Below, piece by piece: positions 29,107 to 64,000 of a DNA stretch of 64,000 bases (positions are counted from its first letter, which is position 1; the number at the start of each line of letters is the position of its first letter). Below the pieces are notes generated by a model. That model did not search any database. It saw only the letters and a program-made list of their open reading frames with translations, and had not been told where the DNA came from. This stretch comes from Amphiscolops sp. MND2022 (taxonomy: Eukaryota). The stretch is from NCBI GenBank assembly GCA_964187785.1, contig OZ076409.1:9426001-9490000 (forward strand), in the 5' to 3' direction. The translations under genes and the position numbers were made by a program.

Positions 29107-29307
29107 AAATAAATATATTGTTTGATTCAAGTTCAGCAATAAATATATTGTATTTATTGTCCTGCAATATTTTAGAAAAACAATAGTTTTTTGAAATATT
29201 TTATTGGGCAGAGAAACATCCATTTACAAGGCAAACATCCCAATGTTGTTTTGGCTACGACAAACAGCCGTGAGCATTATGCGTAGCGAACAGCTTAGTG
29301 AAATTAT

Positions 29308-29725: not shown

Positions 29726-29727
29726 AT

Positions 29728-29740
29728 TGGTGCGACCACG
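29728..29740 (+). promoter_or_regulatory. E2 candidate PBS TGGTGCGACCACG
   Basis: TGG lies 2 nt after the LTR-terminal CA; cognate tRNA not identified. Confidence 0.7.
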
Positions 29741-30837: not shown

Positions 30838-31542
30838 ATGCTCCCCACTCCATTTACAGTCTCTAATGATAAAAGACAAAATCGATCTCTTATACAATAT
30901 GTAACACCTTTTCTACAAAATATTATCTTTCAGTACACTAACCCACTTCCATTTGAAACAGAACCCCATATATTACACACTATTCCATTAATACGAGAAC
31001 ATTGTGATTCCTACTTATATTATATCCAATATAAAACACTTGACATAACACCATCACAAACTCCTTTCCAAGTTATTTTTAACCCTGTTAAAGGAATAAA
31101 CTCTGGAACATTTTATAGAACTATACACCCACAGAATATTACACTTTCTATACAAGATGTTTTTCACACATATATGCAAAAACTCATTGAATTCAATGAA
31201 CACCAAGACATACCACCTTATCGTCCTTCTCATTTACAAGAACTAAAACACTTATCTGAATATTTCGAGGTCCCTGATCTTGACACAAAAGTTCAAAGAC
31301 ATGGTAACCCTCATTATTGGCTACAACGAGATATATTACAAATAAAGAATTTCGAGTTCAAATTCTTTACAAAAATTACCCTTACAGATGACACTATACC
31401 TCAAGTCAAAATTTTTACACATTTCTTATTAAAATTCTTTAGATTTAACTACCAATTACTCTGGGAACAAAAAGACCAAAACGCTTATACTAACTTCCCA
31501 AAAGCATTAACAGATCATCTGTTAATGCTTTTGGGAAGTTAG
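30838..31542 (+). pseudogene. E2 polyprotein N-terminal segment, cut off by a 146-bp insertion (31516-31661)
   Basis: Removing 31516-31661 gives ..ACA GAT|GAT ATA GAA.. (ALTD-DIELLPY), fusing this ORF in frame to 31644-36410. Confidence 0.8.
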
Positions 31543-31643
31543 TTAATCTGTTAATCATCTGTTAATGCTTTTGGGAAAATGTGTAACATTTAATGAAGTA
31601 AGATCTATGTAATGTGAGTGTTTGTTTTTATTGTCTATGATGT

Positions 31644-36410: not shown

Positions 36411-36425
36411 AATGAACAAAACAAA

Positions 36426-39182: not shown

Positions 39183-39283
39183 TCTAGTCATTCTATCTGT
39201 TGGCTTACTCAAACTTAGTCACTCTGGTTGAATGAATGTTGAATAAATGAAATAAAACCCATAACAAGTTATCTTAAAGATAA

Positions 39284-40540
39284 CCTGTTGAAAACACTTC
39301 AACAATCCTGGATCCTCCCTCTGATATCTCTCCATCAGCTCCAAGTATTCCTTCTACACATGAATCTTCAGTATCAAACACTACAAACTCTAGTAATGTA
39401 ACTCCTACTACTCCTTCTAAAAGACCCAGATCATACATCTCTGAAACCACTTCTTCTTCACTTCTTGACAGACCACCTATAACCGAAATTCCTATAAACA
39501 CTCGTCCCCAACAAACTCCTATTAACACTCCTATTATACACATACCAAACCCTGAAAGTGTTGAACAATACGTAACATACAAACACCCTACAGCTATCAA
39601 AACTGTTAGACTCCAACCTCAACTTAATCTAGTACAAATTCCTGATACTGAATATACGAAACTACCTCCACTAAAATTACCTTCAGAACTTAGCACTACA
39701 GAACTTAGCACTACTTCTTCAAAACTTTATCCACCATTAAAACCTCTTCGAAAACCCTCTACATCACTCTCAAATCTCTTAGACAATAATACTTCTGACT
39801 ACGCTCCATCACAAGACACAAGCTCATATTTTGTACCTAGACATAGATATAATCTTCGTGATCTTCCTTCACGTAGACTTAGTACAGACACTTCCACACT
39901 CAATTTTTCCGCTCTTTCTAGCAATTCTGCATTACGACTTGTAAGACAACACGCTCAACCATTGTCCTCTGACCCATCATCTTCAGAACTCTTTCAATCT
40001 CCTTATTTTACTTCTGGTTTTGAAACCGCTTCATTACTTTCATCTAATCCACAAACTGCATTCCTATCAGGAGATCTTTTTTCACAAGTAGTAATCCCTA
40101 CTCCTGTTCCTGCACATATTAGACTACCTGAATACTATACTGCAGAACATTCTAGACCTCCAACCCCAAATTTTGCTGATTACCCACTTCGAGTCGATGG
40201 TATAACTATCTACGACCCACAAAACGATCCTCGATTTCCAATTCTTGCAGAACGTTTTATTAATAACAACGATCTCTTATCTCATAAACGTAAAGAAACA
40301 GAACTAAAACGTCTCCAGACACCAAATTTAGAACTTAAATTTGAAGTCAAAGTCAAATTTCAAGGATTAAATCCTCATCCAATATTTCACGTTTCTAAAA
40401 TAGAACATAAAATCTCTCCTGCTCCTTTTGAAGTAGTACATATTGAATTCGAACGCGATCTTAATATACCCACTATCACGTATGGCAACATTGTCTTCTG
40501 TAACCCATACTCTGGTCTTAAATATAAGACATCCTTTTAA
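39284..40540 (+). CDS. E2 accessory ORF X: ~418-codon stop-free frame with no ATG, S/T/P-rich N-terminal half, unknown product
   Basis: The frame of listed ORF 39962-40540 is open back to a TAA at 39281-39283 and contains RYNLRDLPSRR. Confidence 0.55.
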   Translation, partial: PVENTSTILDPPSDISPSAPSIPSTHESSVSNTTNSSNVTPTTPSKRPRSYISETTSSSLLDRPPITEIPINTRPQQTPINTPIIHIPNPESVEQYVTYKHPTAIKTVRLQPQLNLVQIPDTEYTKLPPLKLPSELSTTELSTTSSKLYPPLKPLRKPSTSLSNLLDNNTSDYAPSQDTSSYFVPRHRYNLRDLPSRRLSTDTSTLNFSALSSNSALRLVRQHAQPLSSDPSSSELFQSPYFTSGFETASLLSSNPQTAFLSGDLFSQVVIPTPVPAHIRLPEYYTAEHSRPPTPNFADYPLRVDGITIYDPQNDPRFPILAERFINNNDLLSHKRKETELKRLQTPNLELKFEVKVKFQGLNPHPIFHVSKIEHKISPAPFEVVHIEFERDLNIPTITYGNIVFCNPYSGLKYKTSF

Positions 40541-43190
40541 ATCCTACACAACCTCTTATATAACAACTATAATTCTTTTTTTACACTTCTTTAACTCTAT
40601 CTTTTCCATACCTATAGTACTCCCTGACACAGAAAACTATCTTCCATCGGATGACCCGAATATTACAAATCTCATGGTTTCTCATTATGATTGTGCAAAA
40701 CAACACAATCTCAGACAATTTAATCTACTTAATGTAAAACAATGCACTGAAGCTCCTTCTGACATTAAACATGCAAGTGTTAAAGCCCGTGTATATGTCC
40801 GCGCAAAAGCTAAACGTATCAAAGCTTTCAAATGTGTTGCTTATGCAAAGAAAGAAAGGAAAATATGCTTTCAAGGATCTGTCAAATACCGTCGTGTTGA
40901 TCGAACCGTATGGAATCATAATACATTACCGCTTCCTGTCACTCTTGATCCGGTAGAATGTAAAAACATTATAAGACATTTAAATGGTACAAATGATAAA
41001 ATATTGAACAACCTTAACTACAACAAAACATTTACACTCTTTGAAGATCATTATTTTCAAGAACGTTTAGAACAATATCAAACTCCTTTCACTGTATATC
41101 AATTGAACAAAATGTATACAGGTACATTTACATTTATGCCTGCTGACAAAAACTGGATATATGACCCTACAAAAAACCCTTATCATAACTGTCCTGCTCA
41201 TCATCAATTTGAAGTCAACTTAGTTAGTTGGCGACTAGAAGTTTCTGAAATAGAACTTACATATGATGACACATCAAATGACATGATATTTGATGGACAT
41301 ACATTACCCTGCTATTTTGCAGATGGCTTTTGTAAACCCACTACAAAAACTCCTTTTACTCTTGTTTGGTTTAATGACGATTATTGTCTAATTTTTACCC
41401 TACAAGACTTTATTGGACGTATGACTAAAATTGAAGATAGATATTGGATTGAAACAGACTCTTTTGTACATTCTCCACATCCAGTAAAATCTCAAACTGC
41501 TTCTGGCATAAAAGGTACAGAACACCCTTATGTTCATGCTCCTCATACACAACATCCAAATAACCCAAGTCTTTCAAGATTTGAAGTTTTTCCTACAGCA
41601 CAAACCTTTTGTGGTAAACCAGACCCTCTCTATTCTACACAATACTCAGACCTTTTTGTTACATACACTGATGGTTTTAATATGCATACAGGACAACCTA
41701 ATCCTCATTCCATAATTGATGAGTATATCTCTGGTAAAATAGTATTGGACACTTCAAATAACAAATTCGTATTCCCTGCATTAAATGTATCAAACAATTT
41801 CGCTACCATTGATTATGATGCACATATAAACACCAAAATTGACTACACTATTAATCATGTTTTTCGATCAATGACAGTACAAGAACTAAATACTCTTCAT
41901 ACAATATGTGAACTAGAACGAAATCAACTCCTTACAATACTCGCAATGCCAGTACAAAATCCTCAACTTGCTGGTTTCCTTTTAACTGGTAATAGAAGTA
42001 ACTTCTTATACGTTGAAGGCTCAACCGCCTGGCTTTATGACTGTCCTCATTTTTTATCTCCTTTATACAAAGCAGATAGATGCTTTGACCGTATACCCAT
42101 ACATTTTAAAGATACCTTAATGTACGTTGATCCTATTACAAGACAAACTTATGATTATGCTACACCAATTACATGCGATAATAATCCACGTAACATTATT
42201 GAACTAGACCCTGATTCAGATGACCAAGACTTTTATATTCTTGGACCTGAACCTATCAAACGTAAACCTCCACTAATGTTTACACCCTCACAAATCAAAA
42301 CTACAATACGCCCTAATACTTTTACAGCCCAAGATGCTGGTATATATTCAAATGCAGAACTTGATCAATTTTGGAATCGTATTTTATTTTCTAAACACTC
42401 TGATTCTACACTCCAATTGCTAGGTAAAGCTCTTAGTTATTCATTCATTTCATCTAATACTCCAAATTACGATGCAGATTCCCCTCAAGACTCTGGTAAT
42501 CCTTACAATACATTACGAATAGGACTACATGATAAACTCTTGAACTTAACTCCTCTTTTTACACCTACATGGTTCTCTGATGCTTTTATTGCACTTTTTG
42601 GATACCCTTGTTACATTCTTACACAATGTGGCATATACTTTTCTACATTTCTTTTTGTACAAGCTACTCTTACACTTATTGTTAAACTTTACAAAACAAT
42701 ATCCATTAAATATAATCTTAAAAATAATATTACTTTACTTAGTTCTATTGCACATGGTTTTTTTAATGTTCTTACAGCACGAATGGTCAGTGACCTACAT
42801 GAGGCTCAAAACAAAAAACCCAAAAGTACACTTTCCAAATCCAAATCTTTAGATAACTTTATTGACACTTCTCCCACTTTAATTAACCATTCTACAGATG
42901 TTACTTCCCCTCCACCTTTTTATACTAAACGATCTAACAAAATTCAATTTCCTAAATTTAACTTCTTTCCGAAACGACACCACAATTCTCACCATAAAAC
43001 GACTCCACTTCCTTTCTCTTCTGTCCAACATCCCCCACTTCCTAATTATACTCATAAAAACTTTCACTCGAATGACAATCTAACTACTCAACATGACACT
43101 TTAATTAACAATTCTGTCACTTCTACTACGGATACACCAATTAAAATCTATTCACGAATAAACTATCCTTTCCCTCCTCCATCTTCTTGA
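40482..43190 (+). CDS. env: E2 Env-like membrane glycoprotein (~902 aa from first ATG), chuvirus-G/gB-like class III fusion protein
   Basis: Signal-like ITTIILFLHFFNSIFS; YDC-x-L-x-V-x-x-C N-terminal pattern; CELER..LA..NP..G..V.G....YDC..CFDRIPI..YVDPITR..ITCD block; N-glycosylation sequons; C-terminal TM segment GIYFSTFLFVQATLTLIV; located after pol. Confidence 0.82.
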   Translation: MATLSSVTHTLVLNIRHPFKSYTTSYITTIILFLHFFNSIFSIPIVLPDTENYLPSDDPNITNLMVSHYDCAKQHNLRQFNLLNVKQCTEAPSDIKHASVKARVYVRAKAKRIKAFKCVAYAKKERKICFQGSVKYRRVDRTVWNHNTLPLPVTLDPVECKNIIRHLNGTNDKILNNLNYNKTFTLFEDHYFQERLEQYQTPFTVYQLNKMYTGTFTFMPADKNWIYDPTKNPYHNCPAHHQFEVNLVSWRLEVSEIELTYDDTSNDMIFDGHTLPCYFADGFCKPTTKTPFTLVWFNDDYCLIFTLQDFIGRMTKIEDRYWIETDSFVHSPHPVKSQTASGIKGTEHPYVHAPHTQHPNNPSLSRFEVFPTAQTFCGKPDPLYSTQYSDLFVTYTDGFNMHTGQPNPHSIIDEYISGKIVLDTSNNKFVFPALNVSNNFATIDYDAHINTKIDYTINHVFRSMTVQELNTLHTICELERNQLLTILAMPVQNPQLAGFLLTGNRSNFLYVEGSTAWLYDCPHFLSPLYKADRCFDRIPIHFKDTLMYVDPITRQTYDYATPITCDNNPRNIIELDPDSDDQDFYILGPEPIKRKPPLMFTPSQIKTTIRPNTFTAQDAGIYSNAELDQFWNRILFSKHSDSTLQLLGKALSYSFISSNTPNYDADSPQDSGNPYNTLRIGLHDKLLNLTPLFTPTWFSDAFIALFGYPCYILTQCGIYFSTFLFVQATLTLIVKLYKTISIKYNLKNNITLLSSIAHGFFNVLTARMVSDLHEAQNKKPKSTLSKSKSLDNFIDTSPTLINHSTDVTSPPPFYTKRSNKIQFPKFNFFPKRHHNSHHKTTPLPFSSVQHPPLPNYTHKNFHSNDNLTTQHDTLINNSVTSTTDTPIKIYSRINYPFPPPSS

Positions 43191-43439
43191 ACTCTCTCTC
43201 AGTTCTTCTGTAACTCTCTTCCAGAACACTCGCCTGCTATTTCTTCACAATTGCTACTCCTCCACCACTTGAAACTCTTGCAGAAATTCATCTTCCTCAG
43301 TCCAATAATACTTCTCTCATAATAACAATCTTCAAAAACTCTTCAACTAAAGTTGACAAATCCACTCGTTAGTGTAATTTATAGTACTTTAACTTTAAAG
43401 TGCTAAGGCCTCTTGGAATAGATAACACTGTGACTGTTG

Positions 43440-44783
43440 ATGCTTTCTCAAACAATGACACAAGCACAAATTGACCTACAAACACAGCTTGAACAAGCAA
43501 CCCCAACAGATCTTATAACAAGACCTCTTTCAAATGATTCTCCTGTTCTCTATATTGATACTTCTGAAAAAACACCTCCAACTTTTCTTGAACCAATGGA
43601 ACACACAAAAGTTGAAAATGAAAATCCAAAACCTACTCCTCCACAAGATGATACTGATCATACACAATCGACACCACCTCCTCCAAAAAAGCGATATGAA
43701 ATAATGAAAGATCCAATCTTTCTTTCATCACCAATATATCCTCCTTCAATACCTTCAAAAATTTCACTTTGCACGAATCGCGATGATCATTTGATCTCAA
43801 TTCTTTCCACTGACGATTTCGTCTTCAAAGCACAACTAACTTCTCTATATATGCATCCTACTGACTACTCATTTCGCTTATATGACAAAAATCAAGACTT
43901 CTTCACATCCATTGCTTCCAAAATAATGGGTCCATACCAATATTGGCTCGAGAATGGAGTTAAAATTTTCTCTCTCCAATTCAATTTTCTTAGACCTTCT
44001 ATATACGATCTCAAAACGGATGAATCTGATCCATCCTTTCTCTCTATAGCACAAAAAGCTTCTCATCATCAGACATATACTAAATTTCTACAATACACGA
44101 AACCACAAAATTATATTTTTGTCAATTACAAATATACATCACCGTTCACAATGACAAATATGTACACTCTCGACCACTCCTGTATAACAGGCTACCTTCG
44201 GAACTATGACCCTATAAAGCAATACTTCTGTTTGCTTCCATATAACAATACTTCACGTCCACTTATTGTACCTCAAGAATATCTCATACATTACGATGAT
44301 TTTTTGTTGCCTTGCAACATCCCTACTCAAATTGCAAAACCTCTTACTGTTATTAAACACCTCGTTTCTTCTCCACTTGACGATAAAGATAGAACATACT
44401 ATACAGCACTCTACAAACAAACGTATTCCTACAATGAACTTCTCTTTATATCTGCCAAAACTATCTCTTTCATGGTACAAGCTGAACAAAAAACTGAACA
44501 TAAATCACACACTTCGCCCATCAAAAACACTCATGACAAACTTTCCTCTGTATTAAACAATCGAACACTTCGAGACATAACAAATTTACTGGAACCCTAT
44601 AAACGAAACTCCTCTGAAACACCTATCACAACACTTACACATATACTACACTGCTATGACAGAACACACAAACTCCTTCAGACACTCGATTTAGATTCTC
44701 AACGCATCACTCAATCATCCCAAGCAATACAATCTGCTTTGGAAACTATAACTACTCTTTTTAATTCAACTAATCTTCATTAA
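43440..44783 (+). CDS. E2 accessory ORF Y (~447 aa), unknown function
   Basis: Long intact ORF in AT-rich DNA with the same codon bias as the other E2 ORFs; no motif recognised. Confidence 0.75.
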   Translation: MLSQTMTQAQIDLQTQLEQATPTDLITRPLSNDSPVLYIDTSEKTPPTFLEPMEHTKVENENPKPTPPQDDTDHTQSTPPPPKKRYEIMKDPIFLSSPIYPPSIPSKISLCTNRDDHLISILSTDDFVFKAQLTSLYMHPTDYSFRLYDKNQDFFTSIASKIMGPYQYWLENGVKIFSLQFNFLRPSIYDLKTDESDPSFLSIAQKASHHQTYTKFLQYTKPQNYIFVNYKYTSPFTMTNMYTLDHSCITGYLRNYDPIKQYFCLLPYNNTSRPLIVPQEYLIHYDDFLLPCNIPTQIAKPLTVIKHLVSSPLDDKDRTYYTALYKQTYSYNELLFISAKTISFMVQAEQKTEHKSHTSPIKNTHDKLSSVLNNRTLRDITNLLEPYKRNSSETPITTLTHILHCYDRTHKLLQTLDLDSQRITQSSQAIQSALETITTLFNSTNLH

Positions 44784-45193
44784 ACTTCTCTACAGGTAAT
44801 ATAAAGTTTTAAATTTTTTTCTCTGGTACATTCTATGGTACATCTGTGGCATATTCTACAAGGTATTTTCATTTTTATTTCACAAAAATCTTTACTTTTG
44901 AATGAAATCTCAGGACTGTTTTTTAAGTACACTAATTTCTCCTACAGTACATGTCAAAAACTAACTATTTTTTTATTTTAAACACTACAATACAAGACAT
45001 ACAAGACAATCGAAAATATTACTACATATGGCACATTATAGCACCCATTTTTGTTGTACATCTTTGACTTGATATTGTCATTCTTCTTACACTTCCTTTG
45101 TTTTAGAAACATCCATTCTTCCTTCTCCTTCATCCAAATTCTTTCAGAACATCCCAACCTCTCTTTCTTCGTATCCTTCAAACTCTCGTCATA

Positions 45194-45646
45194 ATGGCTC
45201 CAAATGCTGAAACAAACGACATTCTAACAATGACTTCAGAATTTTCGAAAGTGCATAGTCTTAAAGCCGCCATATTTCATACCATGGCCTTCAAACTCTC
45301 GCTTGAAATTCACAAAAACAAAATTACGCCAAAATGTCTCATCGCTTTCTTAAAAGTACTCTACAATATCACGCAAATAAAGAAAAAGAAAATCACTTTC
45401 GAGCAATATTCGCGAATCCATCTCCAAGGACCTAAAATTGCCATTTGTGAAACGGCATCTAATGTTGTTTTCGTCCTCAATTCGTCTTTTACGTCAAAGG
45501 ATCAGTACTTTCGTACTGCTATCCAAGAAGCTACAGATGCTTTTAATAATATGCTGAAAGATTTCGGGTATACTCAACAACTAGAACTTTATGACCCGAT
45601 CCAACACCAACCTCATCCTCCATCGCAAAACTCTCTCTTTCAATAA
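45194..45646 (+). CDS. E2 accessory ORF Z (150 aa), unknown function
   Basis: ATG in good context (ATAATGG) and globular-looking composition. Confidence 0.55.
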   Translation: MAPNAETNDILTMTSEFSKVHSLKAAIFHTMAFKLSLEIHKNKITPKCLIAFLKVLYNITQIKKKKITFEQYSRIHLQGPKIAICETASNVVFVLNSSFTSKDQYFRTAIQEATDAFNNMLKDFGYTQQLELYDPIQHQPHPPSQNSLFQ

Positions 45647-45867
45647 TCTCTAACACAAACTCCTACTTACTTATATTTCACTCGTTGACTACATTTCGTC
45701 TCCAAATTCTTCATCTTCTTTCGATGATGCTTCGAAATGTGGTTGATGATTACTTCCAAGAACTCCTACACATGCTGAAACTCTTCACTTCACCCACCCA
45801 CGATGGTCAACAACATCCATCTACACTTTGGGTTCATCGACGTTGCCAAAAATTGTCCTCGTCATCG

Positions 45868-46055
45868 TTCTTCACACTTCAAATGCTGACTTCGTGACTG
45901 GTCTTCTTCACACCTCAATTGCTGACTTTGTGAACTGGTCTTCTTCACACCTCAATTGCTGACTTTGTGAACTGCTCTTCTTCACACCTCAACTGCTGAC
46001 TTCGTGAACTGGTCTTCTTCACACCTCAACTGCTGACTTCGTGAACTGGTCTTCA
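45868..46055 (+). repeat. 37-bp tandem repeat (GGTCTTCTTCACACCTCAA(T/C)TGCTGACTT(T/C)GTGAACT), about 5 copies, in the E2 3' region
   Basis: Head-to-tail units with no spacers. Confidence 0.95.
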
Positions 46056-47196
46056 TACTCCAATGGCCAATACAAATTTCAAACTGAACTGTATAATCAT
46101 TTATAACCAATATAACCTGTAATCTATTTTAATCAAATCATAACTTTAATATGGACTAGTGCTATATACTCCTATCTAATTTTTAGTGCTATATAATCTT
46201 ATCTAATCGTAGTATACTAGTGCTATATATTCCTATCTAATCTTTAGCGCTATATAATCTTATTTAATCTTAATCTTATCTAACCATTGTATAATTACCC
46301 CCCATTAACCATAATCCTTCCCCAATTCTACCCATAATTATTCTTGTAACCACAATATTATTTACTTCCATTGTATTGTGTATAGAACTTTAACATTATC
46401 TTACATAATTATCCACTTCAAAATACATTTTAATCCCCGTCTTTTTACAGAACACAAGTCCTACTTACAGCACAAGAAATTTTCTAAGATTTTTGGACAA
46501 AAATTTTTTCTTTTACAAAACATGTTCTACAACTTTCCTTTAACCCTCAAAAGCATTCCCAAAAAATTTTCCAGAATTTTCTTTCGAACTCTTGAAAATT
46601 GTCACTTGTGAAAACTGTCACTTCTAGTTTTCAAATGTTTGAAACTTGAAATAGCCAAAGTTTTTTTTCAACTCTTGCTTCTGCTCTACTCTTCACTTTT
46701 GTTGAAAATGAACTCTCACTTCAACCTTGACTTTTCAAAACTTCTTCACTTTTGGTTCACATACCCGCCAATGTTGGTTCACAACTCATTGACAACTCCA
46801 CGCTTTAATTCTTCAACTTGAAAAGTTTTCAATGCTGACTAACTCATGTTGATGAAACAAACTTTTTCAACAAGCCGATGGCTGATACGTACGAAAAAGA
46901 AACCTGAAAGAATAAATAGTTGTCAACAATAACTTCAAAGAACTTGTCAGTCAAAGAAACTGAAAGAACTTGAACCTGTTTGAACCTTTTTGCACCAATT
47001 GAATCGTCTATGATGTAAGAAGTCAAATCGTTTTAGGTTGTTCTCACTCCTTAAGTATGGTACTCTACAAAACGAAACTCATGCAACTTTAGTACAACAC
47101 ATATGAAACAAACCCATGCATATAACAAAAACTTCTAGAACTCCTCAAACTCAAAAGTGCATATATGTAATTTTTATTTTTAAATTCCCGGTTGAT

Positions 47197-47614
47197 TGTG
47201 ATGCCATGATGCATGTCCTCAAAGATTTTATAAATCTGAAATACTCTGAACTCTTAACAAAAGAAATTAGTGAATCTAATTGAATCTAGAAACCAATTAT
47301 TCTAGAAGAAACTTCGTTTAATATATCCTGTACCAAGCTTCCCCAATTCATCCTGTTGCTGTCACATTGTAATTGATGAAACCTACCCTAGTTAATAGAA
47401 TATATCTACTCGGAGAAATTGAGAATTCTTCCTGACGATCAGTCTTCTTCCAACACTCCAGTAACTGAGATCTCAGAAATAGATTGTACTCAGAACTAGC
47501 TAGCTACCAAGTATAAGATAAAAGATAAGACGACTCCGCTGTTAAAATCTTAGACTTCTTATGTCAGTTCTAACTCGTATAAAAGAAACAACCACAAAAC
47601 TTTTTAACAGCTCA
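47197..47614 (+). repeat. E2 3' LTR (418 bp)
   Basis: Direct repeat of 29308-29725, followed by TTAT. Confidence 0.95.
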
Positions 47615-51387: not shown

Positions 51388-52915
51388 TGTCGCAAACCAG
51401 AACTTGCGTGGGATCCGGAGAGCAACAGTAGTTGAAGCGAACAGTGTGTCTGACCATCGTCTGAAAACTGTGAAACTTTCACAATAAACATTTTGTTTTA
51501 TTTGTTTTCATTTTGCCTTTTCTCTTTTTCGAAAGTCATGTAAATAACTGGTACAATTTAATGTGAAAAGGGCCTAGTTTTACATGTCATTGAGAGCAAA
51601 CAATTGCATAAAACCCGAGTTAGAGTAAAGGAAACACGTGTTGATGAGCAATATGTTACGTAACATTGATTCTTATTTAGCCCAATTTAGTTTAAATACC
51701 ATTTTGTGCTGACTACTATGCGGTAGTCTGCGGTTCGAGCAGTACCGCATACTCGTCATTATGCGTTTTTGTCAAGATTCACTATGCGGCACCCTACAGT
51801 TCGAGGAGTGACGCATACTCGTCACTATACGTTTTTTTTTTGCAGAAACACTATGCGGTATTCTGCGGATTGTGTAGTGACGTATACTCGTCATTATGCG
51901 GTTTCAGCAGGACCTTCTATATAGCTTTGGAAGCTGAAGTAATGCTATTTGGAAACCATCTTAAATGTATTTTATATCGCATTCTAGGTAATTTCCAGGG
52001 TTTTCCCTAGTCCTTTCCTTAAATATACTTAGAACGTGATGCAATTCAGCTGATGCTATAAATAGAATGACGTTACCCTGACGTAATCCTATTTTTGTCT
52101 TTTCCAAATAATGATTGCAGTAAAAATGAGTGTCATGGTATTTTTGGAGCTATTTCATTCTAAAAACTGAAGGAGAATTCATTCAATCCTGAACTGTCAA
52201 CAAGTGCAGTTGCTTCTTCAAACATCTGTAAACCTTTTGGTAATTTGCTGATACTCTTGTGTCTTGTTATTTCAAATAGACAAGATAATTCAAATTCTTC
52301 CCCAAAAGCCAAAAACCATTTTCACCCAAAGCAATACGGGAAACAAACGCAATAGACGATCTAGGAGATTAGAGACTCCTTCCCCAGAAAGAGAAGTGGA
52401 AGTAACTCAAGTAGGAATACCCATTACAGGTAATGAGACTTTAACTAATTCTAATACGGTTGTTCAAGAAAATTTAGGTGAAAACAATTCAGAGGGCCAG
52501 TTGATCCAACCCAGTGTAGTTAGTAATGAAATTCAAGCCTGGACCCAAATTATGGAACAAAAGAATAATGATCGAATTGAAAAAATGAGAGAAGAGATGG
52601 AAAACAAACTGGAAACAATCTTAAAAGAGATAAAGTCTAACAAAAGCGCTTCTACGGCAACAAATCCAAGGTCAGAAATTAACGAAAACAGAGATCAGCA
52701 ACCGTCGGGATCCAAAATAGATAGGTCTAATGGAGTTCACGCATCAAACATTGGAAATTCTGATTCTGAAAATGACGATTATCCTCTTAGGGCTTCTAAA
52801 ATGAAAGATCTTAGACATCCTGCAAAGCCTTTGTTTCGAGCTGAATCAGATGTAGACGTAACTATACATTCAGACGAAGAGTCTGATGCAGAGAGCCTAG
52901 GTGAGGATTATCACA
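51388..52915 (+). repeat. E3 putative 5' LTR (~1.5 kb)
   Basis: Ends ..TCACA directly before PBS TGGTGACAGGAG; the start cannot be confirmed without the 3' LTR. Confidence 0.6.
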
Positions 52916-54027
52916 TGGTGACAGGAGCCAACCGACAACTCCATAGACAAAGTTCACAAAAACTAAATGACACAGCAGGATTCCACGCAGACCAAAATCT
53001 GCCAAATTTAACAACAAAACCACTTGACCCAGTCAATCAAATTGCACTTGCAATTGAACGATTAGCTAACAAAAACACACAACCATCACTGTTTCATCCG
53101 AAAAACACATTGACTTTCAATGGAAAAAATGAGAAAAATGAGAAATTTGAATACTTTGAAGACTTGTTCCATACAACCCTAAAAATGCAACCAAACCTAA
53201 CTGAGGAAATGAAAATCAACCATTTCCATGCACATCTCAGAGGTTTGGCACTCAAAACGTTTAAAAATATCCAACGAACCCCAACAACGACTTTGGAAGA
53301 CATCCTAAAAGTCTTTCGCAGAAAGTATGTCAAGCCGGAATCTAGTGCCTCAGCTAAGCACAGATTCAATAGACTTGCATTTGACCCAGAACACCAGAAA
53401 CTTCCAGATTTTTTAGAGGAACTCCAAGAGAGTGCTGAAAAAGCGTTCGGCGAGAATGCATATCAGATGATAGAAAACCTACTCTACGCTAAAATGCCTC
53501 CCCACCTTAAAAAGTCCATTAATCAAGCATACCTTGAAAATGGAACATACGACCAAATCGTCAAACATCTCGAAAGAGAGATGGAGCTAAATGGTTTGGA
53601 AGCTGATGAACTCCTGGTGAAAACCCAGATGACGGCCACGAAAAAAGAACAAAACGCTGAAAAAACCAACAAAAAACAAAATGAAAAAGCCAAAACACAA
53701 ACACCAAAAACAGTACCGAATAAAACCCTCAAAACTGATCAATGCCGTTACTGCAAAGAGACAGGCCACATGATGGCTGAATGCCCTAAATTAGCCAAAC
53801 GACGTAAACTTGAGGAAGACCCAGATGCCGAAAAATGCCAAAATTGCAATACACCGGGACATGATGAAGAAAATTGCTACTTTGGCGCAAACATGGAAAA
53901 TAGACCACCTAAATGGACTCTCACAGAAGCCCAGAAAAAGGTGATCGAAAACTATAAACAAGCTAAAAAACCAATCAAACCAAGAATGGAACGACAACAA
54001 CAATCCTCGTCGAAGGATTTAAACTAG
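52264..54027 (+). CDS. gag: E3 Gag with two CCHC knuckles; frame starts within the LTR, true start uncertain
   Basis: CRYCKETGHMMAEC and CQNCNTPGHDEENC; capsid region aligns with E1 (FNGKNEKNEKFEYFE..KINHFHAHLRGLA..LLYAKMP). Confidence 0.92.
   Translation: MLFQIDKIIQILPQKPKTIFTQSNTGNKRNRRSRRLETPSPEREVEVTQVGIPITGNETLTNSNTVVQENLGENNSEGQLIQPSVVSNEIQAWTQIMEQKNNDRIEKMREEMENKLETILKEIKSNKSASTATNPRSEINENRDQQPSGSKIDRSNGVHASNIGNSDSENDDYPLRASKMKDLRHPAKPLFRAESDVDVTIHSDEESDAESLGEDYHMVTGANRQLHRQSSQKLNDTAGFHADQNLPNLTTKPLDPVNQIALAIERLANKNTQPSLFHPKNTLTFNGKNEKNEKFEYFEDLFHTTLKMQPNLTEEMKINHFHAHLRGLALKTFKNIQRTPTTTLEDILKVFRRKYVKPESSASAKHRFNRLAFDPEHQKLPDFLEELQESAEKAFGENAYQMIENLLYAKMPPHLKKSINQAYLENGTYDQIVKHLEREMELNGLEADELLVKTQMTATKKEQNAEKTNKKQNEKAKTQTPKTVPNKTLKTDQCRYCKETGHMMAECPKLAKRRKLEEDPDAEKCQNCNTPGHDEENCYFGANMENRPPKWTLTEAQKKVIENYKQAKKPIKPRMERQQQSSSKDLN
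52916..52927 (+). promoter_or_regulatory. E3 PBS TGGTGACAGGAG
   Basis: Identical to the E1 PBS and preceded by CA. Confidence 0.8.
54018..54024 (+). promoter_or_regulatory. E3 -1 frameshift slippery site T TTA AAC
   Basis: Canonical heptamer immediately before the gag TAG; the -1 frame is open into pol. Confidence 0.85.
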
Positions 54028-54197
54028 AAACGCCACGCCTCTACACAAAATCACCACAAAAACAAAACTCAGCAGATGACTGGCAGCATCCGCTGAGCCC
54101 AAAACCCACAAAAACAGCAGTTTGCGAAACTGAACTAACGACACAAAATTCGCAGCAATCGACTCTAGAAACTCAAACTGAAGACTTATACGAACTT

Positions 54198-57100
54198 TTG
54201 CACGATGCACCAGACAACTACTTTCCACAACAACCAACCCATCCCAAAAGTGACCCAACTCCAGAAATTCACCACACTCCAAAAAATCATGTTATAATAA
54301 AACCTTCTTGCAATGAAGAAAAACAACCACTTTTAGATGAAGATCTCTCTGAACATATACAATTCGACAAGGAACGGAACTTGTCATACCTTCCAATCTC
54401 AACCTCCTTGACATTGAAGAGAAAACGCCATATGTACTACATACCAATGGATTTCGAAAAACTTACGCTTGATGGTCTTATCGATACAGGAGCGCTTACA
54501 AGCGCAATCTCTGAACAAGACCTCAACAAAATCAAACTCCTAGCAAGTGAAGCTATAAAAGAAACTGGTCCCCCACCAAACTTCCAAATTATGGTTGCTA
54601 ATGGACAACTGGAAGTTCCAATTGGTACTGTATTACTTGAATTTGAAGTGGCTGACTTCATGTTGAGGGAAAATTTCATCGTCATGAGAAACCTACCAAA
54701 CCCACTCATCGGATTGTGTTTCCTCAGAAGGAACAATGCAATTTTTGATGTCAATCAAAGCATCTTAACTTTTCCCTACCTCTCGATGCAGCTCAAGCCT
54801 GATACACAAACAGCAATACGCCAAGCAACACCATTGTTTGCCGAAAATACCTATACCTTACAACCAGGGGAAACACTTGCCATAGCAAGCAAAATGCCTC
54901 ATCTGATGGATCATGATGCGACAGGAATTGTCACACCATCACAACAATTTGAAAACCACGATAGCATGTTTATCACAAAATCACTCAGCACTGTCACTAA
55001 CAATGCTATCGGATATCAAATCATCAATTTCTCCGAACTCCCATATACAATAACCCTTGATACCCATTTAGCGGATTTCAAGATACTAACTCCAGAACAA
55101 ATTAAACACATCCGACCGGTAGACCCAGCGTTGCTATCTTTCATGATACAATATGAAGAGACAACAGAGGTCTACATAAATGAATTGCTAAAGGTCCCCC
55201 AACCAAATACTGACCACGAAACATACTGGTTCCCAACACCTGAAGAACCAGGTGACCCAGCTACCTACACCCCAATTCAGCAAAGAATTTACAACGAACT
55301 TCTCGAACTAAAAGAACTCGAGAAATTGAATCCACATGACAACGAATCTTCTCGAAAAGCTTTCCTGTCGAACTTCGACTGGTCTGATACGACACTCAAC
55401 CATGAAGAACAACAGGAAATTGAAGAAATCCTCATTGAATTCCATGACATTCTTGCCAGACATCGTTTCGATATTGGCATAAATCGTGAATTCAAAATAA
55501 AACTTACACCAAATGATGACAGACCTGCTTATAGCCAAAGCCTACCAACGCCGATTAACCTAAAGGATGACATCACGGTAGAACGTGCACTTCTCCACAA
55601 ATATGGGATTATCACAACTTTACCCTTCTCTAAATACGCGAGTCCCATATTTGCACAACGCAAACCCAATGGGCGCCTTAGGCTCCTTGTTGACCTAAGG
55701 AAAATCAATAACTTAATAACTGAAGATTATACCAATAATAATCACCCGGTAAGCACTTTGTCGGATGCAGCTCAACACATGGCAGGAAAAAAGCTTTTCT
55801 GCAAACTAGATTGCTCCCAGGCTTACCACTGCCTACAAATGGCAGACTACCAATCAATTCAGATGCTAGCTTTTAATTTTGCAAGCAGAACATTTGCATA
55901 CCGTCGTCTCGCCCAGGGCCTCAGCAGATCACTCTCTGCATTCTCAAGCTTCATGAGAGAGTACCTGGACAAGGCAATAAAAGCAGACCAATGTGCCCAA
56001 TATGTAGACGACATTGGCATAGCAGCGAATGACACAAAACAATTGTGCACAAACATCAGAACAGTCTTCGAATGCATCCGCAATGCGGGATTGAAACTTT
56101 CGATGTCGAAATGTCATTTCGGAGTCAAACAAGTTGATTTCTTGGGTCGCACAATAACTCCCCATGGAGTCGCCCCACAAGCCGACAAAGTGAAAGACTT
56201 CCTCTCAAAACTTCGCTTTCCAAAATCAAAGAAGGCGTTGCAGAGATATATTGGATTTTTAAACTACTATCGCAACTATATTCCACGCCTTTCAGAACGA
56301 CTTTCTCCTTTCTTTAAACTACTTAAAGAAACATCCAAATTTTACGTACCAACAAACTTGGTAGAAGATTTCACAAACCTCAACAAACTACTCGAAAACT
56401 CTTGTCAATTGGCACTAAAGCAACCCCTGAAAGACAAACAATTGATAGTCATGTCCGATGCCAGTTTTATGGCAGCAGGATACGCAATAATGATAGAAGA
56501 CGACCCAAACCAAAAACTGCAATCCAAACGTGAAACCTATGCACCCATCGCATTCGGTTCAAAAACTTTTAATCCAACTCAAACGAAAATGTCAATATAT
56601 GCGAAAGAATTTCTTTCCATATATTTTGCATTCGTGGAATTTGGCCACCTCTTGTGGGGAACCACCTTTCCAGTCATAGTCTTCACAGACAATCGATCAT
56701 TAACTAGATTTTTCCAAACAAAAATGATTCCTCCAGCACTATGGAATGCATGCGATTATGTCCTGCAATACAATTTTGTAATCGCCCATGTTGCTGGCTC
56801 GATGAATACCGCAGCAGACTTCTTATCTAGAACAGAAGTCGACCCAACAGAAAAACTTGAAATGAATATTCGTAATGATATTCACACAAAAGCAATTGAA
56901 GTGAATATCCAATCAACAGGCATCGCTGAAGAAGAACAAATCTATGTTCTCCCAGATGATGAAATCGACGAAACCCAACTTTGGGAAGAAAAACAAAATA
57001 TCCGAAATCAAGCTCAAACTGAAACACACAACGACCCCGAAAATGAGGTCGCTGAACAACAACAATTTCACAAACCCACCTCAGGATTAATCTCTATTTC

Positions 57101-58912
57101 ATCAGGATACTTCAAGGACAATGCCAAAATCCGCCTCGAGCAGAATAATGACGTAGTCCTCAGAAACCTGAGAGCAAAAATCGAAGGCAACCCCTTCGAC
57201 GAGAATGAGTTGGCATCAGACTACAGATACCAACACTACCTACAAAACTTAACAAGAATAGAAATTAAACAAGAAGTCCTCACCCGAAAATACTATACGG
57301 ACACAGGAACCACATCTCACTACCAGATTCTCCTACCGGTTCAACTTTTAGATGAACTCTTACAAGCCCTTCATGGCCATATTTCAAACCACCCAGGAAT
57401 CACGAAAATGATTCAGGAAGCAAGACAAAAATATTACTACCCATGTATGGCTAAATACATTAAAAAATGGGTCAGTAACTGCCAAGTCTGCATTCAAACG
57501 AAACGTATCAAATCAACAACGATCTCCTCAGAACCGAACTTCTTAATTGCCCAGAATGGGATCTTGGCCCGGAAGACATTCTACAGATGGATATTCTACC
57601 AAACCTCCCCTCTAGCGGAGGTTATGATCACATCATCACAGCAATAGATGTCTTCTCGAGATACTTGTTTGCTTATCCCGTGATTCGTATTACCGCCACA
57701 GCAGTATCAAGAGTCATCATGGATATACTATGCAAGCACACCTACCTTCCAACAACGATAATCACAGATTTAGGCACTCAATTCAACGCTCAAGTAACTC
57801 ACGAAGTTGCTGCAGTGCTGGGAATTGAACTTAAACACGCAACAATGAAACATGCCCAAACAATAGGACTCCTCGAGAGAACCCATGCCTCAGTGAAAAC
57901 ACACCTAAAAGCTGCAACAGGCGAATTCAAGAATAACTGGCATAAACATCTCCCGTTAGCAGTCCTTAACCATAACACATCATACCATGCATCACTCGGT
58001 TGTGAACCTTCACGAGTCTTACATGGCAGAATACCACATAATATCCTAGACTATAAACTCGGATATAACCCTAACCCACGATATCAACCACAGGCAGATG
58101 TGGCAGAAGAAATACAAAAACGCATGAAAATCCTTTTAGATCAAACAAAGAAAAATATCATGCAATCCTATCTCAAGTACAAAGCCTACTATGATAGGAA
58201 AGCCAAAGCAGCACCGCTCGAAACGACGGACTATTGCTACATTCTCAACCCAAAAGCCGACACGCAAGCGACGAAAATACCATTTCGAGAATTCAGATGG
58301 TGTGGTCCATATAAAGTGGAAAAAGTGCTCCCTAACAATAATTATATTGTCGGGAGACTTGGTACTAACAAAACGCAACTGCTACACAGGATACGCCTGC
58401 GAAAATTCACTCCGCAAGCTCCATTAGCAGATATTTTTGTCCGCGAAACTGATTGGCAAAAAGATGACCAGATGCCTATAGCAAATGATGATCTATATGC
58501 CCAATCATGGAATACAAATTTTGGATCTAATCCGTTTGAAGATGGTCCTTCAGAATACTCAGAAGACACTGAGGAAACCGAATATACTCCAATCCAAATA
58601 CCTAATGATAACCGCCCTCCCTCCCCAGGATCTTCAAAAAATAGTGGGGGGAGCCCAGTGGAACAGACCACTGAACCAGATCAAAATTGCGACAATCATG
58701 AAAATGAAATTCCACAACACATCAGTGAAGATGATTAAAATACCCAAAAAACTCAAAAAGAACCAAATAATTCATCGGTTGATGATACCCAAAAAACCCT
58801 AGAAAATTCACAAAATACCCCATTGCAAGAAGAACCCATAAATACTCGTGGTGAAAAATACAATTTACGCCCCAATCCCAACCCAAACTACTCTGACTCT
58901 TACAGATACTAA
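54198..58912 (+). pseudogene. pol: E3 Pol (PR-RT-RH-IN), disrupted by a 5-bp duplication (ATCAA, 57507-57516) and a premature TAA (58736-58738)
   Basis: LIDTGA, QYVDDIG, SDASFMAAG, H..HPG..CQVC, MDILP, TDLGTQF, LLERTH, GPY. The frame continues after the TAA to ..KYNLRPNPNPNYSDSYRY* at 58912. Confidence 0.93.
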
Positions 58913-59095: not shown

Positions 59096-62000
59096 TCAAT
59101 TCGTCTTCTTGTCTTTTCCAGACTTACTCTTCATTTTTTTTGATGCTCCTCCAGCTTCCAGGTCTCCACAGCGAGGAACTTCCAGGCTAACTCTGCTTAG
59201 TGAAGGGTCAGGGGACGGCGAACTATTTACACTGCTGTGCCGACTAACACTAGGTGTTGTACTGCTTGAAGTTATGGGTGGCTTCTCGGTTCGTAAAACG
59301 GCTTTCCTGTAGCCAGTCTCGAATTTTCCCAGTAACGCTGCTCGACGCGGGCTACTTCCTTTAAGGAAATTCCATACGGAAAATTTCTTGTCGGTAAGTA
59401 GATCCTCACCACGTCCCAGAAGCCGGAAGACTCGAGGGATAGATTTTGGATCACGATACAGACTTGATACGTGTGGGACAGTTAAATAGGAAGCCTGTAA
59501 ACTCCGCAAGCATGACTGAAAGGACTCAGTATTACCTTCTAAACGTAGAACTGGAACAGTGAATTCTGGAGACATTTCGATAAGAGGAGGCAAGCATAAG
59601 CAAGAGTACTTATAAAGCTGAAGCAACTCTGGACGACACCGGATCTCATAATGAGACGACAAAAAATGTACCCAATCTTCGTATTCTGGTATTGGTCCAG
59701 CACGGAGTTTAGTAACAAAGGAACGATACTGACTAATGATCTTTACTTTATCGCTGCTTGAAATCCACCCGGCACTAGAAAAGTAAGACGACAGCTTCTC
59801 AATTGCACTGGAATAGTGTTCCTCGGGACCCTCGATCATAACACTGGAGTCAAAAGCTGACAACCCCCTGATTAAGTCCGACTTTATGACATCGTGGCAC
59901 AGCAGTAACTTGCAAAAAGCCTTACAAAAGGCGATCGATTGGTCCACAAATTTCCCCGGACGGGGTAACCTACTTGCCAAAACCAACTTGTGGAAGTCTT
60001 CATTCAAAATAAATTCACTAGACGTCTTGTAAGGAAGCTCAGTTTGGTCGAGATCAATAGTGAGATATCTGTCCCAATCGGAAATACTCCCTAGCACACT
60101 ATCGGGTAGTATACTTTGTAATTGACTGTATATGAAGACGGCAAATTGATTGTACAAACGAAATCCGCCTTCAATGCGCTTCTGTACTTCCGAAAAGGCC
60201 GAATTATCTGAAACATACCAAAATCTACGTAATGGAACACATTTGTTCGGAATATATTATTGCACCAACACGTTTGGACAAACAACACAAAAACAGCACT
60301 AATTGATCAGCTATGTCTGAATCAATTTCATATGCTGCATAGTAATATGAAACGAGAGCAAACGTATAGTAAATATCTACACTATACGGAATATCATACG
60401 GGAACTATACGGCATTATGCGGATTGAAGCGCAATGAATACTCGCCATTATACGGATTGAAAGGAATTAACTATTCGGCATTATGCGGATCAAGGTATGA
60501 CGACTATACGTCACCATGCGGATCAAGGTATGACGACTATACGTCACCATGCGGATCGAGGTGCGACGACTATGCGTCACTATGCGGAAATAGCAGTGAC
60601 GATTATATGCTACTACCTTAGGCATTTACAAATGATTATACGCAAATATGCGAATGGAGATACGATGACTATTCATCATTGTTACAAAATTGAAAGCAAA
60701 TGCATGTGCTACAGTAAATGACTGGAAGAATGGATAAATGACGACCTCACGGCTCCTATTTCGAAACGGGAAGGCACGAATTACAAAATGATTGAACAGA
60801 AAATTTAAAAATCGGTAACAAATGATACTACAATACTTTATCAGAAGATGTGGAGCAACTAACAGTGGTCTAACACGCATCTGATGATGAAGAGTCTGGC
60901 TAAATAGGCTGTATCCAAGCGGAAACATTCGTCGAGAGTGTTCGGCTGAAATAAGAGAAAATATATTGAGTAACAAAGTAATTCCAAAGAAATGGGATTA
61001 TTGGGAAGTGTAATAACCTCTCTCATGTGGAATCGGTATACTGGGAGTCTTGCTACCTGGTTCAAATGCTCCCGAACACGATCCCAATGGTTTGACAATT
61101 CTTCAATGATAACTGATGCTTCATCTAATGAGTACTCGAGGCGAATTACACACTGAAACGAGAGACTTTAAGATTGTGTGAAACAAAATTGAAAACAGCC
61201 AAGAGTGAGAAATACCTTATGAAGGTAAGGCAAGCTCTGCAACCAGTCACGGTCAAGTGCAGTCCTCAATTTCATGAGGAGAAAGTCCAAAATTGTGCGA
61301 AAATCGTGACGTTCAATTATTTGGACTGTCGGCAGTGTTAAACTAACTTCGAGGTCGGTAGTCCCATAAGTATTGACAATACATGGTCTTTTTGAGCCTG
61401 GTAAAGTGTTTGACAAGCAATCATCTAACTTGTCTCCAACCCCAATAAGTGCAATACACGAAGGGGGAACGTCAAAAAGGCTGAGGAAAGAGGCAAGCAA
61501 ATTAAGAATCCTCCGGGGGAGTAATAGTCCTCGAGGAGAACTGCCTAAGCAGACACGGTGAAAGACATTCCCCGACCAGAATGATAAAATCACAAAGGAA
61601 TGGGTTGGTGAATGCTGTACTGCTAGTGAATATGCCCCAGAAGAAGTGGTCATGGTAACGCAGTAGTTCATCAATTCTCTGAACATGTACACGAGAATTC
61701 CCTGCTGAAAAAACATAGCATGAATAACAACCTAGTAAGGGAATGCTAACTAAGATCAGCAAGGTAGAGAAAAGTACTTACAAACACTCGTTGCTCACTC
61801 CAATTTTGGGTGGTCGATTGGTCATTGGACATCAGTCGAGACAATTCCTCGTAGATCCCTGTGAGGCTCTTAATGTGACCCGCATGTCTGAGTCCATGTT
61901 CCAAGACGGCGATTTGAAAGAGGACTTTGTCGGTCGGACTAGATACGACTCCTAGTGCAGGTACAGCAGATTGGCCGACCAAAGGATGACGTGAGTCCAA

Positions 62001-63539
62001 TTGGGGAGCAATTGGGTGGGAGTCTCTAGCCACCTTCTTTGCTTCCTGAAGGGCAATCCCTAGAATTTCCTTCCCATCCTTGTCAAACAGTGGGGTGCCA
62101 GGAATTTCCATGCGAATTCGGTGTTCTTTCGTCAAATGAGTGTCTGAACGGTAATGCGAAATTAATTCCAACGGTCCCCGGCTCATCAGCGATAGTTCCG
62201 TCCTACATACTCTACACCACCACTTGTAAGGTGTTTTCTCAGCATCCAGAGGACCGGTTGCGGAAAATTTAAGTACTGGATGTTTCCTGAGCATACTCAC
62301 TGTCAGTGAGTACCTAGGTCTCCTCCTCTTGCCATGTGTTGTCTGTTGCCTTTCATGCCCTTCAGATGACAGAGGTCTGGACGATGAGGGTCCGGGAAGG
62401 TCTTCCTGACTTGATGTAGCTAGGAGTGTAGGATCCAGAGTGTGATCCACGATAGTTAGCGATAAGGGCTGATTAGCATCTACCCCTTCGCCGGACATGA
62501 AGTTCTGTGGGATTCGTTCTAAGACACTACTTAGTGTCAGAATCTCCTGCCGAGTGACGTTAAGGCTGGGATAGGCAACGCCAGTAAAGTCCCCTTCAGT
62601 AGGAGCAGTGCGGGTGGTTTCTTGAAGTCCAAGATTTCCAATCTCATAATTGGCGGGGTCATCGAGTAGAGTGGGAATTTCCCCCGTAGCGTCATCAAGT
62701 AAAGTTGGAGTCAAATACTGCCCGAGTTGGAAAGGAGAAGCCTGGGCAATTTGGGGGGCAGGATAAGTCCCGGTAAAGTCATGCTGTAATACTGGATTAA
62801 AATCGCCCATGTTAGTGGTGGGGGTAGTTGCAGCTGTTTCACCAAGATTGACACGTCTATCTGGGGAGTGTAATTCAGCTCTCTGTTTTGGTTCCTGTGC
62901 TGAGCAGTTCTCTTCACGATTCACAGATGCAGGGGTAGTTACTACTTCTATACCCTCGTCAATGCTGAGAGGTTGAGCACTAGGAGACACAAAGGGAACT
63001 TGGAGACTGGCTGTTCTAGGCGAAGCTACTCCTAGTGGGGTAAACACTTTGTCAGGCGTCTTTACAGAAGGAGACTTTTCTGAAGTGGCGGAAGTTTTGT
63101 GAGGCGATTTTTCTGGTGAAGTCCGAGAAGTCCAGAGTTCAACTAAAACAATGATCTATTACCTAATGAAAGAAGGAAGTGGATCTGATCTAGCAAGCGA
63201 AACACGTTTGAAAATGCCTGAAACCGGACGCGGGGACAGGAAATGAAAGTAGAACGGAAGTAGCTTAGAAGTTCGAAGCGGAAACGTTTCAAAAAACCCG
63301 AATTTGGACTAGACATTTTCGCTAGCCATTTTCAAGCTGCAAGCCTGGCCAGCTTTGCAAAAAACCAAAAAGTCTCAAATCTGAATCAAAATGAACCAAA
63401 TCAAAACAAATGAGTTGAGCTTACCGGACATCGGATTGAGAGGTAAATCACTCCAAAAGTCGTCGCGGTGATGTGGCGATTGATCTTTTCTGGATCTTCG
63501 TTTGCCTGAAGAACCTGACCCGCCAGGTGTAGAATCCAT
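59096..63539 (-). CDS. E3 antisense spliced gene, predicted 6 exons (63539-63425, 63142-61782, 61704-61216, 61152-61018, 60945-60864, 60207-59096), about 1097 aa; BED-like zinc finger, hAT-transposase-like
   Basis: Five GT-AG introns with matching phases (1,0,0,0,1); the joined 3294 nt has no internal stop. WWCRVCRTELSLMSRGPLELISHYRSDTH; EELSNHWDRVREHL; C-terminal RPELLQLYKYSCLCLP; homologous to the E1 antisense gene. Confidence 0.78.
60400..60610 (+). repeat. 33-bp tandem repeat (ATGCGGATCAAGGTATGACGACTATACGTCACC-like) in the last intron of the E3 antisense gene
   Basis: Visible periodicity; related TATGCGG arrays at 51716-51900 and 63905-64000. Confidence 0.85.
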
Positions 63540-64000
63540 TATCCCACAAGAGTAATGAAATTATGCGAATTTGAAATTTTCCTGCTGGAAATGTTATGTA
63601 AAGAAGTCGGGGAAGATATGGATGAACTGCTTCTGTATGTGTGAACTACGACTAAAGACTGAACAAGGAAATTAACAATAAGTTGACTGAAAATGCAATA
63701 TACGTAAGAAGGCGTGGCGTAAAAGAAGGCAAAGAGCAAATGATGCAAGTTTGCGCAAATGTGCAAGAGAATACTATAATCTGATTGGTTAATTAAATGT
63801 CAATTTCGTCTGCCAGCGTGATTGATTGACTCATTGTGGATTCTGGATGAGAGAATACATGCAAATACGCTAATACGAACCAAATTGGAATGGTTTATAT
63901 GCTAGAGCATACGGCAGTATGCGGATCGACTAACAGCGAGTATACGGCAGTATGCGGAATTGCAGTGACGAGTATGCGGCAGTATGCGGAATTGCAGGCA

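Follow-up and report, generated by a model that had tools for sequence, protein, structure and literature searches.

The antisense gene of the E3 element

The stretch analyzed here, referred to as the window, comprises 64,000 nt of contig OZ076409.1 (positions 9,426,001 to 9,490,000, forward strand) within the 1.07-Gb eukaryotic assembly of Amphiscolops sp. MND2022 in which we conducted our genome searches. The window contains three long terminal repeat (LTR) elements, E1, E2, and E3. E3 is a Ty3/Gypsy LTR retrotransposon that begins at position 51388 and extends beyond the window end, and the subject of this study is a multi-exon gene that lies between its integrase and its 3′ LTR, on the minus strand and tail-to-tail with the integrase. 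The 5′ LTR (51388–52400, plus strand) spans at least 1013 nt, the comparison being limited to the region up to 52400. It was matched by blastn to a 3′ copy at window-equivalent positions 65890–66903, which begins ≈1890 nt past the window end, with 98.8% identity over 1015 columns. On the plus strand, an open gag frame (52252–54027; Pfam zf-CCHC, E 1.3e-4; Ty3_capsid, weak) is followed by a first pol frame (53967–57647) that encodes protease (gag-asp_proteas, residues 167–255), reverse transcriptase (RVT_1, residues 565–730, E 7e-22), RNase H (RT_RNaseH, residues 823–932, E 7e-15), and the integrase zinc domain (Integrase_H2C2, residues 1124–1179, E 3.5e-15). The integrase core and C terminus, recognized by an rve match (E 2e-10) and by alignment to E1 pol, occupy another plus-strand frame (57479–58738). 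Pol in the window copy of E3 therefore consists of two overlapping frames with a break within the integrase near 57528–57566; E1 pol is a single 1603-aa frame. The Ty3/Gypsy domain order of protease, reverse transcriptase, RNase H, and integrase was found by Pfam in both E1 and E3, and flanking LTRs were found for E3.

The initial annotation of this region had assembled six antisense exons into a protein of ≈1097 aa, and that assembly is borne out. Read on the minus strand from 63539 to 59096, the six exons join into 3294 nt, or 1097 codons plus TGA, with no internal stops, and all five introns (282, 77, 63, 72, and 656 nt; phases 1, 0, 0, 0, and 1) have GT..AG boundaries. Exon 1 (63425–63539, 115 nt) starts with the ATG at 63539, ends in phase 1, and is present in 11 of the 13 family copies described below. 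Exon 2 (61782–63142, 1361 nt) encodes an S/T/P-rich N-terminal region, a BED-like CCHH zinc finger (62121–62216; C-x2-C-x16-H-x5-H), and ≈110 more residues. Exon 3 (61216–61704) is 489 nt long, or 486 nt if the second AG of its tandem CAGCAG acceptor (61702–61707) is used, and is predicted to encode a β-β-β-α RNase H-like start followed by helices. Exon 4 (61018–61152) measures 135 nt here and in all 12 evaluable copies, with a conserved W-D at residues 23–24, and exon 5 (60864–60945), which ends in phase 1, measures 82 nt in 13 of 13 copies. Exon 6 (59096–60207, 1112 nt including TGA) encodes a predicted all-helical domain of ≈300 aa and then a disordered S/K/P-rich tail.

Two of the introns deserve comment. 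Intron 4 (61017–60946, 72 nt) is in frame and stop-free in the window copy; because its length is not a multiple of three in 8 of 12 relatives, it is a true intron. Intron 5 (60208–60863, 656 nt, phase 1) carries 33/66-nt tandem repeats at 60402–60607 and has been precisely lost in one subfamily, as described below. A separate 32-nt repeat lies at 63937–63997, upstream of the gene's ATG, and has the words ATGCGGA and TATACG in common with the intron 5 repeats. Rfam and tRNA scans of the window returned nothing.

To compare copies across the assembly, we fetched 13 E3-family and 6 E1-family loci picked to span the range of identity, and later 4 more distant E1-like loci. The E3 last exon had 6948 first-look candidates in the genome, and the 111 that were scored all showed 63–100% identity, mostly in open frames; the E1 last exon had 1037, with 18 of the 99 scored ≈100% identical. 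By these counts, the gene is present in thousands of copies across subfamilies. Its retention in most family members, which the initial annotation had implied, was found as well: exons 2–6 occur in 13 of 13 E3-family copies (last-exon identity 63–80%) and all seven exons of the E1 gene in 6 of 6 E1-family copies, with one stop in each of the two copy sets. Splice dinucleotides at the exon 3/4/5/6 junctions are kept in 12/12, 13/13, 12/12, 12/13, 13/13, and 13/13 evaluable cases, while the lengths of introns 3, 4, and 5 drift across the E3 family (63–78, 66–86, and 445–693 nt, respectively).

Between subfamilies, synonymous divergence (dS) is saturated and nonsynonymous divergence (dN) is 0.06–0.3. 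The ratio of the two, omega, is 0.03–0.09 for the closest E1-family copies (L034–L036), 0.04–0.09 between E1 and its own 79%-identical subfamily, and 0.18–0.28 for the more distant E1-like loci in the cases where it could be computed. These values point to purifying selection on the antisense gene. The dN/dS comparisons of copies gave no sign of positive selection, and the proposal that the protein evolves in the manner of host-conflict proteins is not supported. The gene's placement is equally constant: the C terminus of an integrase lies on the opposite strand beside the gene's stop in all 16 E3-like loci with enough flank, in agreement with the location and orientation first noted. Across these loci, integrase and accessory identity co-vary (Spearman 0.83, n = 16), a correlation among loci that were picked by accessory similarity and are not independent.

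Evidence for splicing comes from the database relatives of the E3 protein. Two of them, P0136 and P0201, run gaplessly through the point where exons 5 and 6 meet in the spliced E3 protein. At least 10 genomic places encode residues 1–143 of P0201 in one unbroken 429-nt stretch with 97–99% identity, inside frames of 384–418 aa (e.g., C6:10372468–10372896), and these places represent an E3-related subfamily with fused exons 5 and 6 that is ≈50% identical in the last exon. Another protein, P0081, has short in-frame insertions exactly at the positions of introns 4 and 5. Exons 5 and 6 are contiguous exactly at the predicted junction, and the last intron has thus been precisely lost in that subfamily, as typically happens when a spliced mRNA is copied back into DNA. 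This fusion is the strongest support for real splicing, which it indicates.

A search of 1.84 billion protein representatives identified 292 relatives at E ≤ 1e-3, of which 150 were listed. Among the matches listed, the best identity to this genome is 49% for P0002 and 24–28% for P0130; because these two are so distant from it, other organisms also carry the gene. A search with the E3 last exon for longer homologous proteins found none, and metagenome locus scans with P0002 and P0189 yielded no confirmed locus. The antisense gene is real, old, and under selection.

Relationship between the E3 and E1 genes

E1, at 11689–26086, also carries an antisense gene (20683–24960, minus strand), for which a model was derived independently from sequence. 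Seven exons (24960–24732, 24592–24455, 24236–23868, 23717–23152, 22982–22494, 22347–22137, and 21962–20683), separated by six GT..AG introns, join into 3282 nt encoding 1093 aa; the initial annotation had given the right length, and the exons number seven, not six. The finger of this protein (23604–23512, minus strand) has the same C-x2-C-x16-H-x5-H spacing as that of E3, and blastp aligns the two fingers (residues 348–415 against 284–349) at 34% identity and E 1.3e-7. The strings first quoted can all be found, both those of the finger and the exon ends LQSLPYLHK and FDNMPRLRE, and residue 23 of the following exon is a tryptophan, as stated.

We then deepened the family profiles with 29 E3-like and 34 E1-like proteins (down to 32% identity), and with these the homology past the finger that had been proposed became significant for the 163-aa exon (22982–22494 in E1) and for the last exon (21962–20683 in E1). 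For the last exons, hhalign aligned residues 12–202 with 13–205 at P 6e-5 and a score of 43.7, compared with 18.1 for a reversed profile and 24.3 for the best of 30 column shuffles. The 163-aa exons aligned over residues 43–162 in both proteins (P 8e-4; reversed control, P 0.25), and the short middle exon aligned weakly over residues 9–27 in both, around a common W-D. When the three exons were joined, residues 41–439 aligned with 41–440 at P 9e-4, and a single one-column gap sufficed to align 27 exon sequences of the two families together with MAFFT.

Because every best alignment lies at an offset of 0–1, three introns fall in the same column and the same phase in the two genes: both introns flanking the 163-aa exon, each in phase 0, and the last intron, in phase 1, which is also where the initial annotation had placed an equivalent one. 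The broader claim of conserved intron positions stands for these three, but the 72-nt intron 4 of E3 has no counterpart in E1, in which that stretch is a single 211-nt exon. The exon after the finger is indeed bounded by phase-0 introns on both sides in both genes, but its equal length of 489 nt is a soft equality, given the tandem acceptor in E3 and the 486 nt that result from the sole AG at this boundary in 12 of 13 diverged copies of the E3 family. The finger exon of E1 also has a tandem acceptor, TAGCAG (23714–23720), and with NAGNAG-type acceptors in both genes, each protein could occur in two forms that are one residue apart in length.

Between E1 and E3, pol is 42–48% identical and gag 26%, whereas the accessory protein is less than 20% identical outside the finger. 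It had been suggested that the accessory protein diverges faster than pol, and judging from these values it is clearly the fastest-evolving part of the element, yet constrained. On the strength of the profile alignments and the intron positions, we consider the 1097-aa protein of E3 and the 1093-aa protein of E1 to be products of the same gene, which would then predate the split of two lineages that today have 42–48% identity in pol. Our favored reading, to which we assign a probability of roughly 80%, is that E3 is a Ty3/Gypsy element with an antisense six-exon accessory gene that is homologous to that of E1 and ancestral to both lineages.

Protein content and alternative explanations

The accessory protein consists of a disordered S/T/P-rich N terminus, one CCHH finger, a predicted RNase H-like start, a helical domain of ≈300 aa, and a basic, serine-rich tail. 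Pfam assigned no family at E ≤ 0.01 to any antisense exon of E1 or E3, and among 40 last-exon relatives it returned 6 families at E ≤ 5, which is chance level. The zf-BED family (PF02892) has the spacing C-x2-C-x(n)-H-x(3-5)-H/C, a pattern that the fingers of E1 and E3 fit. Among Pfam families it scores highest for 8 of 9 E1-like finger exons, at 13.6–15.9 bits and under the gathering cut-off of 20.6, and is listed for none of 12 E3-like finger exons. The closest named Atlas clusters of the finger are BED proteins, with values of 0.83–0.87 that lie below the 0.9 lead level.

The AlphaFold model of the last exon, calculated from a 40-sequence alignment (mean pLDDT 72), is all-helical over residues 1–300 and ends in a disordered tail; Foldseek searches of PDB and BFVD with it gave nothing at E ≤ 0.001, and the ESM Atlas gave no usable match to the E3 last exon. 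In the model of the 163-aa exon (27 sequences, pLDDT 61), an initial helix leads into three strands and a second helix; an ill-defined segment comes next, and further helices follow it. The Hermes transposase chain 2bw3_A ranks second in Foldseek for this model with the highest probability listed (0.87, E 0.072), and its neighbors there are sugar kinases and the RuvC domains of Cas12, which have the RNase H-like motif in common. Two pieces that were folded separately thus match the Hermes chain, with weak scores, in the correct order and at similar spacing. Because these pieces follow in that order behind a BED-like finger, the layout resembles that of a hAT transposase. PDB sequence profile searches with the accessory-protein profiles A2 and A3 gave nothing relevant. 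From these models, we would put descent of the antisense gene from a hAT-type transposase at about even odds.

The favored reading suggests how such a gene could function and persist. Its introns would survive retrotransposition because the element's genomic RNA represents the opposite strand, where they read CT..AC and would stay unspliced. A promoter of the gene's own would lie in the 2.35 kb that separate its start codon from the 3′ LTR. Given its finger and basic tail, and the analogy to Grande gene23 and HBZ discussed below, the protein may be a nuclear DNA-binding factor that would serve the element by regulating transcription or chromatin, by countering silencing, or by guiding integration. 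The product would descend from a hAT-type transposase and would probably not be an active nuclease. In its fullest form, in which an old Ty3/Gypsy lineage took in a hAT transposase gene with its introns and keeps it as an antisense, spliced, probably noncatalytic DNA-binding accessory protein, this account is tentative and falls somewhat short of even odds.

Several results weigh against one part or another of this account. Outside the finger, plain BLAST of E1 against E3 is not significant (the next matches have E 0.12 or worse), nor are the shallow family profiles (P 0.013–0.27), and a hidden Markov model of the shallow E1 family found nothing among the 150 listed E3-like proteins. The ≈100 residues from the finger to the next intron gave no profile alignment, and the N-terminal thirds do not align and differ in intron number (one in E3, three in E1). 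As for hAT descent, Pfam found the hAT dimerization domain PF05699 in 0 of 40 last-exon relatives, last-exon family profiles matched none of 15 hAT frames of this genome, and all structural scores to Hermes are weak. Acidic residues are retained at columns 91, 135, and 141 in 23–26 of 27 sequences but could not be mapped onto the Hermes triad. The DNA-binding accessory function that we propose is read from domain content.

The first of these results are what would be expected if the E1 and E3 proteins had only the zinc finger in common, having arisen by separate captures or exon shuffling, with coincidental exon lengths; the blastp match is confined to the finger, the shallow profiles fail, and the 100 residues ahead of a shared phase-0 intron do not align. 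The deeper profiles, however, are significant in two separate exons for which the reversed or shuffled controls fail, every best alignment keeps an offset of 0–1 with three introns in the same phase and column, and the 27-sequence alignment needs one single-column gap, all of which makes this explanation very unlikely. Slightly less probable still is that the gene belongs to an independent hAT-like DNA transposon that was nested in an ancestral Gypsy element and that it still serves, with Gypsy a mere vehicle. The BED-like finger and the hints of a Hermes-like fold would suit such an origin, as would the many hAT copies in the genome (150 PF05699 matches scored among 2215 candidates), but the dimerization domain is absent from all 40 relatives searched, no sequence link to the genome's hAT frames was found, no acidic triad is assignable, and the gene keeps the same integrase neighbor in all 16 E3-like loci with flank and diverges along with that integrase. 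We give the least weight to the idea that the open frames are unexpressed relics, or that the exon model is wrong and a long noncoding spacer has happened to stay open. The minus strand has no AATAAA just downstream of either stop, in E1 or in E3, and no Pfam family exceeds the threshold, as this idea would predict. Against it, the frames are open across subfamilies with saturated synonymous sites, splice dinucleotides persist as the introns change in length, one intron has been precisely lost, and the protein has 292 relatives in the database search.

We therefore retain homology of the E1 and E3 genes, inherited from a common ancestor, as the preferred explanation. The initial annotation had described an old capture, vertically inherited and maintained by selection, and as a whole that interpretation is partly supported. 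Age, inheritance with the element, and selection agree with the shared introns, the co-varying integrase identity, and the signature of purifying selection, but capture is only weakly indicated, by the likeness to hAT transposases.

Neighboring elements, known counterparts, and significance

The remaining features of the window provide context for E3. The LTR segments of E1, at 11689 and 25787, are 100% identical, and E1 is a gag-pol Ty3/Gypsy element by Pfam; because the LTRs of E3 are 98.8% identical, the E3 insertion is older than that of E1. These identical segments, together with the 18 of 99 scored places that are ≈100% identical in the last exon, make the E1 family look recently active. 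E2 (29306–47494, with LTRs beginning at 29306 and 47195) is a much more distant Gypsy-like element whose pol is 21–25% identical to E1 pol. Its plus-strand frame at 40437–43190 is a sense env-like gene with a match (E 4e-24) to PF24664, the Monjiviricetes fusion glycoprotein family, and this match gives E2 the appearance of an endogenous retrovirus that captured its glycoprotein from a negative-strand virus. We considered whether E2 also carries the antisense gene and rejected this, as E2 has plus-strand frames only, along with the env-like gene. Upstream of E1, minus-strand frames at 5598–6401 and 10053–10517 match adjoining parts of the DUF4291 profile (E 3e-31 and 3e-5) and probably represent a pair of exons from one host gene. 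An array of a 22-nt unit at 3688–4032 (spacings of 22, 22, and 43 nt) is unrelated to the LTR elements.

The closest parallel in layout is found in plants. The Tat/Retand lineage of Ty3/Gypsy elements is defined by antisense open reading frames (ORFs) between pol and the 3′ LTR, most of them bearing TRP28 (PMC11963269), and these aORF-3R frames include gene23 of maize Grande and those of rice RIRE2 and Silene Retand (PMC11963269, PMC7264820). As the available portions of these articles describe them, they resemble the gene reported here in being conserved frames in that position, antisense to gag-pol and present in most copies of the lineage, in being suspected nuclear or DNA-binding regulators (PMC11963269, PMC7264820), and in having tandem repeat arrays in the same spacer (PMC11963269). 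The differences are that the plant frames are presented there as single ORFs, with no intron mentioned in those portions, whereas the gene here has 5–6 introns, encodes ≈1100 aa with a BED-like finger, and resides in a genome whose splice signals and types of elements point to an invertebrate animal. TRP28 (Transposase_28, PF04195) was not found by Pfam in the E1 or E3 exons or in the 40 relatives. Because TRP28 is absent here, the gene is best viewed as an analog of the plant ORFs and not as a member of their family, and by this analogy we regard it as an animal-type counterpart of the Retand/Grande antisense ORFs. Our literature search, which did not cover most subscription journals or Repbase reports, turned up no report of a Gypsy lineage in animals whose antisense gene is spliced.

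Likewise, the 3′ region of the provirus gives rise to antisense transcripts for HBZ in HTLV-1 and for APH-2 in HTLV-2, both nuclear regulators, as cited in one source (PMC11963269). HBZ differs in being a small bZIP protein; Pfam found no bZIP or other family here, and the gene in E3 is five times longer, with many exons. The HBZ mRNA is itself spliced. Similar points of likeness and difference apply to hAT transposases such as Hermes and to their domesticated BED-finger derivatives. Their order of BED-type finger, RNase H-like fold, and large helical region agrees with the predicted layout here, and Hermes comes first or close to first, with weak scores, in the structural comparisons of two separately folded pieces. 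In contrast to these enzymes, the protein described here lacks the Pfam dimerization domain in all 40 relatives and has no assignable catalytic triad, and its gene is carried by a retrotransposon.

Antisense accessory genes are well established for complex retroviruses and for a single Gypsy lineage of plants, and here the same layout is found outside plants, in a long, many-exon, strongly constrained form that is easier to study. The subfamilies that carry the gene span more than 50% pol divergence, and the domain content of the protein hints that it binds DNA and that it derives from the transposase of a DNA element. Placement on the antisense strand would illustrate how introns can ride through reverse transcription, and one subfamily records a precise intron loss. 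For annotation, the consequence is that gene finders will call such exons as thousands of orphan host genes. If the proposed history is true, a retrotransposon has domesticated the enzyme of a DNA transposon, in parallel to the antisense ORFs of plant Retand elements.

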